A DNA stretch of 64,000 bases from Adineta vaga. Taxonomy: Eukaryota; Animalia; Rotifera. Of the stretch, positions 23,130-46,700 are shown in pieces. The notes beneath the pieces were generated by a model. The model saw only the letters and a list, made by a program, of their open reading frames with translations. It had not been told where the DNA came from and made no database searches. Positions within the stretch are counted from its first letter, which is position 1, and each line of letters begins with the position of its first letter. The stretch is from assembly GCA_021613535.1 (NCBI GenBank), contig CP075493.1:6572001-6636000 (forward strand). The letters run 5' to 3'. Made by a program: the position numbers and the translations under genes.

Positions 23130-24526
23130 ATGATTTCTACTCTAATAATCACTTGTCTCTTCTATTTACTAAACCCATTTATATTCAATGTAAACGGAGA
23201 TACATGTAATACTTACAATCATCCTCAATATGGTATTGGCCAATGTATGAACCAAACTTTATGTCCTAATGCTTTGTATCAAAATGGTTTATGTGAATCA
23301 AAACCATTGGATATAAAATGTTGTTTTTCATCAGCACCATTAAAAGAAGAATTTCGTGCTGCTTGGATTGCTACCGTCACTAATATTGATTGGCCATCAT
23401 CAAGAACTGCCACGCCAGCACAACAACAAACTGAATTAATCAATATTCTCAATACAATTCAAAATTTGAATATGAATGCTGTTGTCTTTCAAGTAATATA
23501 CGAAATAAACTCGATCATATTTTCTATTTCAATCATATTTCTTTTCGAAAGGTACGTCCTGTTGGAGACACCATGTATGCTTCCACATTGGAACCATGGA
23601 GTATGTATTTGACAGGTACTCATGGTAAAGCACCATCGCCATTATGGGATCCATTAACATTTATTGTGAATGAAGCACATAAACGTAATATTGAAGTACA
23701 TGCTTGGCTTAATCCATATCGTGGTCGAATGTCGGGCGCAACCTATGAGTTAGCATCGAATCATATGGCTAAACGATTTCCAAAATATGCCTATACATAT
23801 AATAAATACATATGGATGGATCCAGGTTCCGTTGAAGTTCAACAATTTATTGTTAATGTAACCGAAGATATTGTTCGTCGATATGCAGTTGATGGTATTC
23901 ATATGGATGATTATTTCTATCCATATGGTGATGGAACCGATTTTCCTGATGCTGCAACATACAGTGCATATCAACAATCAGGTGGTAAATTAAATAAAAA
24001 TGATTGGCGTCGTTTAAATGTAAATACATTAGTTCAAGTCATGTACGCAAGAATGCATGCCATTCGGCCAAAAGTTAAATTTGGTATTTCACCATTTGGT
24101 ATTTATAAAAATGGTGTGCCAACCGGTATAACTGGCCTTTCATCCTATGATAGTTTATATTGTGATACTAAAATGTGGTTAGAACAAGGATATGTTGATT
24201 ATATGACACCACAACTCTACTGGCAAATTGATCCGCCAGCACAATCTTATCCTGTTCTTTTGAATTGGTGGATACAACAGTCAACTAAAGGTCGTCATGT
24301 CTATCCTGGTAATGCAGTTTATCGAATCCTTCCAACTGGTCTCAATTGGCCCGTTAACGAAATTGTTCGTCAAGTTAATATTACTCGTTCAATGCGTGAT
24401 CGTTTGGCACTTGGAAATGTTTTTTATTCGGTAAAACAAATTATGCAAAATGTGAAAGGCATTCAAAACGAACTTGCAACACTTTATAAACAAAAGGCTA
24501 TCATACCAAAGATGAGCTGGCTTTAA
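23130..24526 (+). CDS. Secreted glycosyl hydrolase-like 10 (GHL10/DUF187, YddW/DigH-like) with N-terminal 6-Cys module; exons 23130-23492 and 23552-24526
   Basis: Signal peptide; EFRAAWIATVTNIDWPS; spliced FQ|VRPVGD; HAWLNPYR; DGIHMDDYFYPY; FGISPFGI; DYMTPQLYW. A 59-nt phase-0 intron. Confidence 0.9.
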
Positions 24527-38682: not shown

Positions 38683-38981
38683 AATCTCATTTATTTTTCA
38701 AATATTATAACAATCATGGATATTCCTCCTTTTTTTTTGTTCTCGCTTATTCTCATGCTTTTTGCTAATTATTCATTTATTGTATTGGTTTATTCGTACT
38801 AATGATATTCAATATTTGGTGGAATTGTTCAATTTCTGTTTTGAATAGTATACATGATTGTAAAACGTTAATAATATTATTATTCGGATTATAAATATAT
38901 GGTTTACACAGATATTAGATGAAATAATTCTGTACATATTTAATTTTATATTTATACGATACATGCACTCCTTAGTAAAAC

Positions 38982-39995
38982 TTAGAAATGATTTACAGAG
39001 GGAATGGCAGATCTGTTTCTTCTTCTTCTTGTAACATGTGGTTGTTGATGAGCTTGACTTGCAATATATCTCCTCGACATGACAACTGGTTGAGTAAATT
39101 TCTGTTGAAAATAATTGAGTTGTAATGGAAATATGTTCGAAAGATATGGTGTTGATGACGATTGATAATCTCTGACTCCTAAATATATTTTATTCCATAA
39201 CAATTTGTCGAAATTTCATCAAATTAACTTACCAAATGGTTGCTTTAGTTGCATACCATAATTCCACATCGGATTGTTTTGAAATGAACCAGTCGGGACC
39301 AAACAAACATTTTCATAAACATTACTATATCGAATAGGTATTTGTCTATTGCGAGTTTCTTGTTGAACATTCGAAGATACACGTCTTAGCATTGTATCAA
39401 CATCAACATTCGGTGTCGTTATATGTCGAAGTAAATGATGAGTAAATATACTATTTCGTCCTTTGATGATCAAACTCGTAATTGGTGCTCCTTCTGCACC
39501 AGAATAAGCGATGATTGTCGATGGAGGTGGACGGACAGGTGCAAGACCTTGGAGCAAGCCCAACGTTTGTCGATCGAAAAAGGGCATTTGGCGTCCTAAT
39601 TCTCGATGAGGTCGACAACAATCAAGAATAACGATGATTGCTCTAGGAGCTTTACTTCTCATAGTATCTATAAAGTTTTCAACATTGATAGCATCTTCTT
39701 TTATATTTCCTGAATTGATTTGTGCATTATCTGTTGGAATTAAATAATTGAAATCATTATACTGTACACCAAGACCAGAAAAATAGAATATTACTAAAGA
39801 ATTTGGTTCAATAGATTGTGCAAATCTATTGGTACGTTTTCCCATTTGATAACTATCCAAATCTGTTGCACAATGTGTAAGAAATCCAATTGAACGTAAT
39901 GCCAAACACATATCATTTGCATCGTTAACACATGGTTTTCGTGGTATTGCTTCATAATTACTATTACCAATGACTAATGCTTGTCTTTGGAACAT
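38982..39995 (-). CDS. Peptidase C14 caspase-like protein (paracaspase/bacterial-type, no prodomain) with catalytic His replaced by Leu; exons 39995-39233 and 39178-38982
   Basis: ALVIGNSNY, PCVNDA, IFYFSGLG (expected SGHG), NYLIPTD, VILDCCR, IIAYS, NSIFTHHLL and QIP; Arg-rich tail exon. Confidence 0.85.
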
Positions 39996-41305
39996 AATTG
40001 TAGTCGACTAGATTGAATATATGCCGTGCAGATTTCTATTGATTGTCGATAATTAAACAATATTTTTATCTAATTAAATGAAGCTTCTGTGTATGATAAA
40101 GTTATTTAATATATTCTTGTTTTCTACTAAATCCGACATTCGTAAGATTATCGAAAAAAATGTTTTAAAATAGAATTTTTTTCATTCGAATACACGTATG
40201 AGTTAAGAGAAATTTCCAACCTAAAATTTCGGTTACTCACTTTAACTATTGTTTATTTTTATGATAAAATGTGATATTTGTTGTTGATTGCTTACATTCT
40301 ATCGCGATGAATGAATAATCGCTTGGTGTATAAGAATATTATTTCTTTTCCCCAACATAATAGCGTGTCTCTTATGTTATGAAAAAAATGGTTCAGGTCC
40401 AATAATTCTTACTGATAAATAGTGTCCTATAACCACCATATATCAAATAGATATGCTTGCATTTTTCTTTCAAAATAACAGGCAATATATACTCATTAGA
40501 GAATATTCTGGGTTTAATTGGGCTTCTGTAAAATAAAATCAACAGGTGTAATGTTTCAGATAAATTTTTCAGTAGAAAAATGTTGTATCAATCAAGATGC
40601 TTATCACTTAACAGTAAAAATTATATTAAAACCATGAGTATATCTCTAAGATGCAAAAAGAAGTCGTCTACTATATCTATAGAAGTTCTCGTTGAAGAAT
40701 TTTGCTTCTTAGGTCATCATAATGAAGCATAGAATGCAAAAAGGAAAATAAGAAGAACACTTTGCTTAGTAACTATATAACTAATAATGTGACAGAACTG
40801 AAAAATCAAACATAAAACAAAATCGACCATGCGACAAAGAAAAATAAATAAACATTTCGTGCACTGAGTATGGGAATAGTTTCATTAGTTGCTACTATCT
40901 GATCAATGATCCAGTGCATCCTTCACCTTTTTTTCTCTCGAATAAACAGAAAAATAGAAAAATAACTGAAATATTTCAGCTGATGTAGAAAGTAAGAAGT
41001 GAGTACGATGGAAAAAGCTTTTTTCGTTTGTGCATTACTAGGATGTCTTATTCATCATATTACAACTTCCTTTTTATTACATAATCATCGATGAGAAATT
41101 TAATTGCTTTTGTCACTCAAGAATCCTCACGTAATTATTATGACTAATTTTGATGAAATGACGCGTTTTGTTCTATACAAACACAACCTATTATGTAGAG
41201 AAAATTTGTTTTAATTCTTTTTTTTCTGTAAATTTATTGATATCTAGAGCGTTTTTTTTTCAAATAGATGTTTTCACTTTTAGATTAGTATCGTACATTA
41301 TCAAC

Positions 41306-42277
41306 ATGTACAAGAAACAAGCACTGCTTATTGGTAATGTTAAATATGCAGAAGGAGATCTAGTACCTTGTGCAAAAGATGCTAAAGATACAGCTGCATC
41401 TCTACAATCGATTGGTTTTCAAGTGCGAGTTGGATTGGATCTTGGTAACGATCAGATGAAATCGACGATTCAGCAATTTGCACGGTCTGTTCGACCAGGT
41501 GCTGTAGTTATCTTTTACTATTCTGGTCATGGTGCTCAGTTTGATGGGAAAAATATTTTGTTACCCATAGATTTTTCCGATCTCAATTGTACTAATGCTC
41601 AAAATGTAATTCAACAGCTACATCAAAATCGACCACGAGCTGTTATCGTCATTCTAGATTGTTGTCGTACCCGTTTGAACATATTGGATGAAGCGAAAAG
41701 AGCTTTGTTCTTCGATCGACGTCCAAGACTAAGAGATGGTCTTACACCTATGGGAGGTCCACCATCAACGATCATTGCTTATGGATGTGCAGCTGGAGAA
41801 TCATCCATAGCGAGATCTAATCTCCGAAATAGTGTTTATACACATCATTTACGTCCTCGTATTACTACACCCGATGTTGATCTTGAAACTATATTGAAAT
41901 ATGTTGCTATAGATGTTCAACGAGACTCAGATAACGAACAATTACCTTTTATCTTTAGTAATTGCAATGAACCTATCTATCTTAATAGTAATTCGTGGTC
42001 AAATAGTCCGGCTTGGCCACGAGCTGTACATTTCAATCCAGTAGTGAGTGAGTGATTGATTATGAAAATAGTCTGTTTACATTTAATATTGCAAATATTT
42101 TTAGTGATGTCTGATAATCGTCTACGTCGTAAACATCATGCTACTTTCAATCTTCGACCAGAAATGACTGATTTCTCACATGGTTTTCGTGATTATTCTC
42201 GTATACCAACTAATAGATATCCATTGCGAAACCATTTATGGTCAGGTGCGATGGAATCACCACATAGACACTGGTAA
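41306..42277 (+). CDS. Peptidase C14 caspase-like protein with intact His-Cys dyad; exons 41306-42047 and 42105-42277
   Basis: ALLIGNVKY, PCAKDA, IFYYSGHG, ILLPID, VILDCCR, PPSTIIAY, NSVYTHHL and EQLP; clear paralog of the upstream divergent gene. Confidence 0.88.
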
Positions 42278-42597
42278 CTAGGAATTTATAAGAAGGCAAC
42301 AAAAGAAATTTTTTATCAAACCAGATTTCATTTCTTTTTTTGTAAACTAAACCAGTTTTGAGAATCATGTCATTGTTATCATAAACGGCTCTGAATCTTT
42401 GATTCTTCATAAAATGTTTGCATGCAATTGCCACCACGTGCTTTGATACAATCGTATGAATCATTGGCGGAATTACATCTAAGTTGTGTAATTTTGATCC
42501 CGTTAATAAAAGATACAATCTAAAGTTTTTTGTCATCTACTAGCTCACAGTAAACTAGTAACGATAAAAATAATAATAATAATAGCAGTTTACAAAA

Positions 42598-43326
42598 ATG
42601 AAAATATCAAATGAAAATTCAGCTGATGCTAATCGTAAACAAAACAAACCATTCTTAGTTTTCATAGCTGGACTTCATTCAGCTGGTAACTATTTACTCC
42701 TTATTTTTTATTCTACTCACCCTCAAGTTTCATTCTATTCAGGCAAAACAAGTGTACTCTACTACGCAAAACCTAAAGAACAAATATCTGGATTATTCAC
42801 CATGGGCCTATAATTGGAAATCATTTCAATTGGTAACAACTCTATAAATTTGCTAGATGAAGGTGGACGTTCATCAAGTCGTGCTTTTTTTCGAGCTTAC
42901 TATCGAAGCCTTTCAGGACTTATCTTTGTAGTTGATTCAAATGATCAAAGTAATATTGACGCTGCATGTGAAGAACTTCATCAAATAGGTATTGAAGCCG
43001 AACTACAAAATAAACCTTTCCTTATTCTTGCTAATAAACAAGATTTATCTACTGCAATGCCAGTAGATGAATTAGAAATGAAACTCAATCTAGCGAAATT
43101 CAATGGAACTAGAAAGTGGCATTTACAACCAACGTGTGCTGTTCGTAGTGAAGGTGTTCAAGAAGTCTTAACATGGCTACTAAACGCAATAATGGAAAAA
43201 CAAGCTTTGATAAAACCAGCAATAGAGACAGTAAAAGACACAAAATCAATACAAACTTTTCTCAACTCTCTTCTAAATATGAATGATGTAAAAACATTTT
43301 TTAACAGACGTTTTAGTTTCACATAG
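42598..43326 (+). pseudogene. ARF/ARL-family small GTPase with in-frame TAA at 42811-42813
   Basis: G1 GLHSAG|KT (intron 42686-42742); switch I reads TMGL*LE; G3 DEGGR; IFVVDSND; G4 NKQD; G5 TCA. Confidence 0.8.
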
Positions 43327-43777: not shown

Positions 43778-46700
43778 ATGTCAAATTGTTCTTCATGTAA
43801 CCAACCATTGTGTGATGACGATGACGAGGAAGTAACTACAAAGTCGGGTGTTAGATTTCATCGCACATGTTTGGAACAATTACTCAAACCAAAATCGAAA
43901 ACTACTCCTAAGGTAACGAAAGAAAATACATATATGAGATTAAGATCATTTCTGAAAAGTAAACTGGAAATTTTCCAATCAAAATTCTCTTTTTGAGCGT
44001 AGCAATATAGATAAATATATTCGTTCAGTTACTCTTTGTACTGAAATAATCAATATCGGTAAATATAAGGTCGTAGATGATGGAATGCACGAAACGTCAT
44101 CGTCACAAGGAACACCCTGTCGATATGGTGGTGAATGTCCACAGATCAATGATAAAAGTCATTGTCGTGATTATGCACATCCAGACTATTGTCAAGATGG
44201 TGGTCATTGTATGAATCAAACAGAAGATCATTTGAAAAAATATCGTCATTTACCGCTTTGTCCACGAGCGAGTAAATGTATCGATTATCTAAAAGAAGTC
44301 AAAGAACATTGTAATAGATATCGTCATTTTGCTCCACGTTGTCCATATGGGAATAATTGTGCGTTGTTTCATGATAAAACTCATTTCGAAGATTTTCAAC
44401 ATCCATTTCCGACTCCTTGTCCACGTACTCCATTCGATTGTCCACTCTATAGTGCTTTATGTGAATCAAAGAATAATCAAACTTTACCAAAATCAACTCA
44501 TCAACATTGTTTGAGTTTTGCTCATGTATGTAAATTCGGTCGAAACTGTACCGATACAACACAATTACATCGATCCAAATCGATTCATATTGCTCGTCAA
44601 GTATGTCCATATCGTGAAAGGTGTTATAAAGTATCCGATGAAGATCATATAAATTCATTTACACATCCGAATATTCCCGATATTCGACCATTATGTCCCT
44701 ATCGTGATAATTGTCGTGAACCTGAAAAACTTGAACATAAAGTTAATTTTCGTCATCCTATTACTCATGAAGCTGGTGTCGTACATTATTATGGTTCTAA
44801 TAAAAGAACAAATTTTGTTAAAAATCATAAGAATAATGTAGCTTGTGTCAATCGTTTTATTACTAAACATCAATGGAAACCCTTACCAACAGGAACTATA
44901 CCTGATGAAATCATTAATTGGATACGTACAGTTCAACCTATTCATCGATGCAGTGCAGTTATATTTGAATCGATACTTCTCCATGGATATGTGATGAGTC
45001 GTCTTTATATGGAACGTTTAAACGATCCAACATTTGTAGCTGATTCTGTCTTACATCATAGTCGTATACGACGTATAGAAGCTATGAAAATGAAAACATG
45101 TGAAGATGATGCAAGACAATATGTTACTGCATTAGTTTGTCGCGAATTTGAAAGAACTGGATTTCTATCAAAATCAACCAATCCTGCTCCATATGCGACA
45201 ACTTCCTTTGAAGAAACAATGAGAAAGAAAGAGAATAAGTTATCCGGAATAGTTTCAGTAAATGATATCAATGCACTACGTACAAAAGCTATTGAAATAG
45301 CACGAGCATCTATTAAACTTCATTCCGATCCAGCTGGTATCGGATATGCACCTGATAAAGCATTGGGTACGGATAAACTTGTTTTTAGTATACTTGGACC
45401 ACATTTAGGTCATTATTATGATGATATTATTATTATATTTAAACGAGATATTTTAAATCATCCTGATTCGAATTTTTCTATGCAAGCAGCTACTTCTTTT
45501 ATTAGTGGCAAAGCTTATAACCAGCGACCCTGGTTAGATGACGATCGTGGTTCTACACATGAACGAGCAAATCATTATCACACAACTAAATTGCATGCTT
45601 CAGTACCAGGTTATGAATATGCTGCGGCACTGGAATTGATGGCAATGACTAGTTTACATTTCAATTTGAAAACAATGGATATTAATCTTAAACAAATATT
45701 TGATCGATGGACAACAGTTGATTCTCATCAAAATATCGAAGCTCATTTACCTCAGTTGATTCCTCTCGATTATATAGATCATATTTATATACCAAGAAAT
45801 ATTTTTGATAATCTTAGTGATGATGCTAAAAGAGCTATCGAAGCTGTTTTTAATAATCGTATTACTATTACAGATCATATAGTTGAAAAGATATTGGATA
45901 AAAGATCCTTTGGTCCATCACCTAATTCACCAATACGAGCGGATTATCAGAATACAGTGATCAAAACATTACTGGCACGATATAAAAGATATACTTCTAT
46001 TCTAGCATTAAATTATCTCAAAGGCACAATAATAACAGTACCATCGACAAACCTCGACGATCATTATGTTTTACCTCTAACAATTTCTCAAGCATATGAA
46101 CAATATAGTTTTGAACGATCGAATCCATCTAGAAATAATATAACATATATCTATTGGAAAGCTCTACATGGAGATATGATGTTAACATTATCAAGTGAAA
46201 AAATTGATCCAATGGAGAAACAAACCCATCTTCGTTGTTTAATTTGTTATGTTGCTACAAAATCTGCATCAATTGATGATCATTACCATGAACCAACGTC
46301 CTATCTAGCAGCTGGACATCCATTTCAACATGCAATGATTACTAGTGAAAAGAAATATGCAGTGAAATCTAATACATTATATGTCGGTTGTAATAGTGCA
46401 GATTTTTTCACTTACTGCTTAGAAATTCATTGCTCAACTGGTCAAGTCATTCTAACACATGCTGGACCTAATGCTATTTACAGTCGAGGACAAATGTTTT
46501 GTAGTTTCAATCGATCACAACTCGATTTGACAAAATTGGAATTTGTTCATATTAGTGCTGGTACTCATAAAGTACCTGTACGAGAATTAATCATATGTTT
46601 CGAGAAACAATCTCATTTACATCCGACATTTGATAAAGATTTTACAGCGAATACACCATCAAAAAGTAAGTAATAATAATTGTCATCTTTGAGAATAATT

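Follow-up and report, generated by a model that had tools for sequence, protein, structure and literature searches.

Apoptotic caspases of family C14A carry a QACxG motif. Their S1 pocket, which takes Asp substrates, is basic (Arg-Gln-Arg; PMC4357240), and pseudo-caspase control is known from such animal Asp-specific enzymes, namely cFLIP and coral caspase-X. The Asp-specific C14A pair cFLIP-L/caspase-8, which has DED prodomains and is recruited to a platform, forms an active heterodimer; cFLIP lacks the catalytic Cys (PMC7586951). MALT1 binds Arg through Asp365, Asp462 and Glu500 and requires a dimer along beta-6, and metacaspases, with two extra strands, are eight-strand monomers (PMC4357240). 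Type 1 paracaspases are defined by N-terminal death and Ig domains, type 2 by the catalytic domain alone (PMC5978004). Among bacterial orthocaspases, 8.6% lack the dyad, and regulation of active relatives by these pseudo-orthocaspases was judged unlikely (PMC6426788). The bdelloid rotifer Adineta vaga encodes 101 PF00656 proteins, many of them transfer candidates, in a bdelloid-specific expansion; the available text of that study makes no mention of dead members or pairs (PMC11258130).

Here we describe two neighbouring A. vaga C14 genes, one with an intact and one with a broken catalytic dyad. The pair resembles cFLIP-L/caspase-8 in that a dead paralog is encoded near a presumably active one and in its caspase-fold heterodimer with one active site, here predicted, but it is C14B-type and prodomain-less and lost the His first. 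As in coral caspase-X (PMC4715348), dead and active caspase domains of an invertebrate lineage-specific family are modelled as a beta-6 dimer; caspase-X, however, is one fused chain of animal type, whereas the rotifer proteins are bacterial-like and come from two divergent genes, with a fused form in Rotaria socialis (P0178). The pseudo-caspase concept and the bdelloid C14 expansion were thus already known, and the pair itself was not found in print: it is absent from 12 of the 16 supplementary files of PMC11258130, and neither it nor dead C14 genes of bdelloids appeared in a literature search that had most subscription journals outside its scope. In a family with the MALT1 fold and no prodomain, a conserved pairing of a dead with an intact member would mean that the same logic had arisen separately. 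It would also assign a role to the numerous dead domains of bacterial caspase homologs and offer a first foothold on the function of about 100 unexplained bdelloid C14 genes.

Anatomy of the locus

In the window (the whole 64-kb stretch of DNA that was analysed), which is AT-rich animal DNA with introns of 50–60 bp, the two C14 genes lie back to back (Table 1). The plus-strand protein (304 aa) is letter-for-letter identical to A. vaga UJR15139.1 (locus tag I4U23_002104) and the minus-strand protein (319 aa) to UJR15138.1 (adjacent tag I4U23_002103), and both are very likely among the 101 PF00656 proteins. PF00656 is covered over its whole length in each (116 bits for plus and 111 bits for minus, cut-off 21.4); it begins at residue 4–5 and is the sole Pfam domain found, with no N-terminal prodomain in either protein. 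The sole NCBIfam match, caspase_w_EACC1, fell far under its cut-off, and the nearest Atlas clusters are Rotifera C14. The proteins are 41% identical over 249 columns. The His-Cys dyad is complete in the plus copy (H75/C120, in SGHG and DCCR) and broken in the minus copy (L75/C127, in SGLG and DCCR). Both introns have GT..AG ends and lie at the same aligned position. The C-terminal tails do not align with each other and are mildly basic, with 10 K+R versus 5 D+E in the 57 aa of the plus tail and 9 versus 1 in the 65 aa of the minus tail. The original prediction, made from the sequence alone, had described this anatomy, and its coordinates, codons, introns, motifs and 1.3-kb spacer all proved accurate; the two-exon structure common to both genes also stood, while its basic tail is only mildly so.

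Table 1. Features of the two C14 genes, in positions of the window
Feature	Position	Strand	Remarks
His-less C14 gene, exon 1	39233..39995	-	ATG 39995; whole catalytic-fold domain, residues 1-254; UJR15138.1
His-less gene, intron (54 bp, phase 1)	39179..39232	-	joint 39177-39232 in 3 of 4 RNA-type runs
His-less gene, exon 2 (65-aa tail and stop)	38982..39178	-	stop 38982
Leu75 codon CTT at the catalytic His site	39771..39773	-	contigs spanning the codon without variant
Cys127 at the catalytic Cys site	39615..39617	-	retained in the window copy
Predicted dimer strand, His-less copy, residues 219-228	39312..39341	-	complex model
AT-rich spacer between start codons (1310 bp)	39996..41305	.	
Intact-dyad C14 gene, exon 1, residues 1-247	41306..42047	+	ATG 41306; UJR15139.1; model pLDDT 89
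Catalytic His75 codon CAT	41528..41530	+	
Catalytic Cys120 codon	41663..41665	+	aligned with the MALT1 Cys
Predicted dimer strand, intact copy, residues 213-219	41942..41962	+	complex model
Intact gene, intron (57 bp, phase 1)	42048..42104	+	joint 42047-42105 in 4 of 4 RNA-type runs
Intact gene, exon 2 (57-aa tail and stop)	42105..42277	+	stop 42277

No third C14 gene was found within the window, and the spacer holds no repeats beyond chance. A recent inverted duplication was ruled out by the divergence of the two genes, which are not sisters in the tree described below. The flanking genes are ordinary, with an NAD-dependent epimerase to the left, an Arf-family GTPase to the right, and neurobeachin and CBP/p300 farther out. 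The Arf-family gene (42586-43326, +) is unusual in its N-terminal part and is extended at the C-terminus. Beyond it, a 905-codon open frame (43956-46673, +) contains about 10 repeated Cys/His units and a long unassigned domain; a weak PBZ (zf-CCHH) match (E 0.025) suggests that its product is possibly a poly(ADP-ribose)-binding repeat protein. A 363-codon frame at 23435-24526 (+) resembles GHL10 glycosyl hydrolases (206 bits), a mainly bacterial family, and may be a transferred gene.

Enzyme type and substrate pocket

Both proteins are closer to bacterial C14 domains and MALT1 than to apoptotic caspases, as the original prediction had read from their motifs. The best solved sequence match was MALT1 (75 bits), with a metacaspase at 24.6 bits over 77 positions and caspase-1 at 24 bits; bacterial-like single domains reached about 180–190 bits with the same profile, and the named non-rotifer matches were bacterial, at about 30–37% identity, orthocaspases being the closest sequences outside rotifers. 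The model of the intact copy (pLDDT 89.2, pTM 0.88) has six core strands, as in MALT1 (PMC4357240), rather than the eight of a metacaspase. It matched the MALT1 fold at TM 0.74–0.76 and 24–25% identity, and the best 23 Foldseek rows listed were all MALT1. In a rough tree, all rotifer-like sequences sat on one long branch apart from the bacterial-like ones. These results agree with the published bdelloid expansion and its many transfer candidates (PMC11258130).

Apoptotic C14A features are absent, with Asp25 and Asp118 at two of the basic-pocket sites and DCCR as the motif. These aspartates, present in both copies, are the equivalents of MALT1 Asp365 and Asp462. The equivalent of Glu500 is Ala169 in the intact copy and Ser174 in the dead one, and this third pocket site is acidic in 2 of 51 subfamily rows versus 231 of 297 bacterial-like rows, so that bacterial orthocaspases retain an acid that the rotifer pair does not. 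Because only two of the three MALT1 pocket acids are present, cleavage after Arg/Lys, judged from these residues, is likely but less assured than the original prediction had assumed. The six-strand caspase-like fold is that of type 1 paracaspases. Unlike MALT1, however, the rotifer proteins have no death or Ig domains, PF00656 alone being found from residue 4; the available part of PMC4357240 describes no dead partner of MALT1. A MALT1-like catalytic domain standing alone corresponds to the C14B layout of type 2 paracaspases and orthocaspases.

Loss of the catalytic histidine

We found no His codon at 39773-39771 in any of four DNA runs from four studies, and contigs spanning the site were unchanged. 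Seven contigs span the Leu75 codon; on six of them every difference maps elsewhere, on the seventh 1 of 13 differences is unlisted, and contigs in general drop rare variants. Among 446 proteins, with alleles and isolates counted, the His is absent from 26 Adineta-clade sequences (20 Leu, 6 Arg). With Leu in all four DNA runs and common to three Adineta species, a sequencing error or private allele is ruled out. The Cys before Arg is also lost in 21 of the 26 (DCAR, DCYR, DGAR), and catalysis is therefore not the property that is conserved.

Spliced joints were found for the plus intron in all four RNA-type runs and for the minus intron in three; the His-less copy is spliced in runs of two studies. 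None of these runs is recorded as RNA; we took them as such because they contain spliced joints and do not cover the middle of the spacer, their contigs extending to 40113 and 41282 with none over 40215-41098. Contig depth cannot rank the genes by expression. The 3' ends of RNA-type contigs from the epimerase gene (+) and from the His-less gene (-) overlap by about 30 bases at 38848-38877, on the evidence of contigs, which cannot fix true transcript ends.

Over the first 232 residues, A. vaga and A. ricciae agree at 81.5% of positions in the dead copy and at 75.4% in the intact copy, and the dead copy was at least as conserved as the intact one in all five paired comparisons; the aligned tail of the intact gene is 35% identical. 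The substitution singled out by the original prediction is thus fixed and lies in a spliced gene no less conserved than its intact neighbour, and none of the three outcomes named as refuting that prediction was seen; the observation behind it is confirmed, its interpretation partly supported. Allelic variation counts against a reading based on constraint: the dead domain carries at least five non-synonymous changes, all conservative, and at least five synonymous ones (p 0.06 against neutrality), and the intact domain at least one and at least four, respectively. Separately, an allele at 42274 in two of the four DNA runs turns Trp304, the intact gene's final codon, into a stop, shortening the protein by one residue.

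Relationship between the two proteins

To place the two copies, we built a maximum-likelihood tree of 41 sequences, in which the His-less copies form one clade (support 80/80) with the His-bearing metagenome protein P0168 as sister (100/100), and the intact neighbours form another (98.6/99). The two clades are not sisters, deep support being low, and they branch alike: ((window locus, A. ricciae), ((second A. vaga locus, A. ricciae), A. steineri)). Two His losses, or a reversion, had been suggested by the unsupported placement of P0168 inside the His-less clade in a quick tree; the fuller tree puts it outside. The intact clade also has in common a deletion of about seven residues after residue 93, before helix 98-106 (within 41306-42047), which is absent from the dead clade and the outgroups.

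The mirrored branching goes with repeated adjacency. A second such pair in A. vaga lies on a different chromosome-scale contig, under the adjacent tags 016893 (Leu) and 016894 (His); the homoeologous pairs described for this species are 1-4, 2-5 and 3-6. Dead and intact proteins have near accessions in A. ricciae (matching longest contigs of 420637, 283762, 75969 and 3566 bases) and in A. steineri (27379, 25792 and 962076 bases); adjacency in these two species is deduced from accessions and matching contigs, and the head-to-head orientation was seen in the window only. The record is not uniform: among the matches listed, no intact neighbour was found for P0006, P0007, P0011, P0279, P0280 and P0282 or for the His-less sequences on contigs 228692 and 960267, and such sequences, several from A. 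steineri and one from A. ricciae, count against pairing. Four rotifer-like metagenome loci (L001-L004, 2.2–12.7 kb) each held one intact relative and no pair. Linkage of neighbouring paralogs is also explicable by history alone, which counts against our preferred reading.

Alignment-free modelling of the complex, which covered only the heterodimer and three controls, gave the heterodimer a score of 0.61 (0.61, 0.63 and 0.61 in separate runs), compared with 0.00 for the best control. Contacts agreed between runs at 90% or more, and partner pLDDT was 80–82. In a benchmark on microbial pairs, 51 of 78 solved and 2 of 108 mismatched ones attained this mark, and on eukaryote pairs 39 of 65 and 2 of 126, respectively; a pass was also obtained for 10 of 12 close relatives of true partners. 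The predicted interface consists of the last strand and the preceding helix, centred on the equivalent residues Phe217 and Tyr223. Because this is the standard caspase/MALT1 dimer, the high score may reflect mere family likeness or the model's familiarity with solved dimers.

In all 16 outgroup relatives, the dimer strand has the sequence P[YF]RY; its Arg is lost in all six intact-clade sequences and its aromatic in all six His-less ones. The interface change preceded the His loss, since the His-bearing sister P0168 already lacks the aromatic. Conservation at the interface does not clearly exceed that of the remaining positions (p 0.09 and 0.08). Changes specific to the dead clade fall at 4 of 16 interface positions versus 6 of 90 elsewhere (p 0.04), and those specific to the intact clade at 2 of 16 versus 5 of 90 (p 0.28; pooled p 0.027), modest figures obtained post hoc.

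Among 72 relatives with two well-covered C14 domains each (three redundant R. socialis rows collapsed), 52 combine an intact with a dead domain, 18 are intact+intact and 2 dead+dead, and only 7 have a close relative in the set. The dead domains are full length (median 103 bits versus 122). Dead single-domain proteins numbered 7 of 315, the Adineta dead clade left out. Searches ranked by score leave dead single domains and dead+dead proteins under-represented, whereas intact+intact ones are favoured, and the excess of mixed over intact+intact proteins is therefore the safer result; it could also arise if the two domains were simply redundant and one site was then lost.

Together, these observations make a conserved pseudo-enzyme beside an intact paralog well supported, and a regulatory complex is predicted from the model. 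Heterodimerisation, whether enabling or inhibitory, is somewhat more likely than not. As to its sense, we tentatively prefer a His-less protein that may be the enabling half of a heterodimer in which a single active site works. Four points favour this sense: the fold must dimerise, a recruitment domain is absent, both sides of the interface have changed and fusions fix a 1:1 ratio. Such a dimer would be analogous to the active cFLIP-L/caspase-8 heterodimer (PMC7586951). The minus copy shares with cFLIP a broken dyad in a conserved, expressed paralog, but because it lacks tandem DED prodomains it is not a cFLIP and at most cFLIP-like in its working.

A somewhat less probable alternative is that the His-less protein has a job of its own, as a substrate trap, scaffold or homodimer, and is tied to its neighbour only through an old local duplication. 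Consistent with this, all seven His-less sequences compared retain both pocket aspartates, additional His-less copies occur in A. steineri, with up to two around one intact gene (on the 962076-base contig), pseudo-orthocaspases occur alone in small cyanobacteria (PMC6426788), and about 101 A. vaga PF00656 proteins (PMC11258130) make other partners possible. The mirrored trees and repeated adjacency at two loci and in three species argue against it, as do the predicted complex with the intact protein and the concentration of relatives' dead domains beside intact ones.

The original prediction had proposed a co-regulated enzyme/decoy pair, in which the His-less protein would heterodimerise, displace active homodimers and dampen the intact enzyme. 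A heterodimer is predicted by the model as well, but the inhibitory sense found no support, an enabling subunit fitting at least as well; we consider the decoy unlikely. Co-regulation likewise found no support in the 1.3-kb spacer, where no repeat of note occurs. It draws on the same evidence of pairing (mirrored trees, predicted complex, mixed two-domain relatives) and on two precedents, the dead domain of coral caspase-X, which lowers killing activity (PMC4715348) and so counts against an enabling role, and high cFLIP-L, which blocks full caspase-8 activation (PMC7586951). However, the change of an otherwise invariant dimer-strand Arg in the intact clade fits loss of a self-interface, the interface changes of the dead clade are older than its His loss, and 1:1 fusions are hard to square with competing decoys. 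Very unlikely, finally, is a protein with no real function, either a redundant paralog drifting as selection relaxed or an enzyme that retains some activity independent of the His. In its favour, the dead domain is richer in non-synonymous allelic variation (5 of 10 among changes listed), and both the Cys and the Gly after the His site are present in the window copy and in its orthologs from A. ricciae. Against it stand open frames of full length in all three species, conservation equal to or higher than that of the intact copy, splicing, and the widespread Cys loss in the clade.

For the enabling heterodimer, a prodomain-less C14B-type gene would have duplicated before the Adineta species split, and the two copies would have diverged at the dimer strand; one would then have lost His75 once, with the Cys lost too in most descendants, and both genes would have been inherited and duplicated together. 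Because the fold depends on dimerisation and neither protein has a domain for recruitment, the amount of active protease would be governed by how much of the dead partner is available, perhaps in stress or anti-pathogen proteolysis. More broadly, it is possible, though doubtful, that bacterial-type (MALT1-fold) caspases commonly act as heterodimers with one active site, whose activation requires a dead paralog as the other half. Such a design would have evolved many times over, both by gene fusion and between neighbouring genes, in bacteria and again in a rotifer family that is probably of foreign origin. If so, this small soluble pair would be a direct test case, overturning the independence of pseudo-orthocaspases from active ones; in contrast to the judgement in PMC6426788, dead domains here lie beside or are fused to intact ones.

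Among metagenome loci, 7 of 80 held at least two C14 domains, and in four of these (three independent) a separate dead gene lies beside an intact one. Locus L077 (2071-3858, -, and 3722-5542, +), with the near-identical L074, contains a bacterial-looking head-to-head pair in which an intact C14 gene stands opposite a dead C14 domain (DAAR) fused to an FGE-sulfatase domain; this pair is an independent copy of the arrangement in the window. Tandem C14 clusters of one intact with one or two dead members occur in L040 (1591-4954) and L071 (1999-2826 and downstream). P0178 (Rotaria socialis, 561 aa) and P0312 are rotifer-clade intact+dead C14 fusions, of separate origin in the rough tree.
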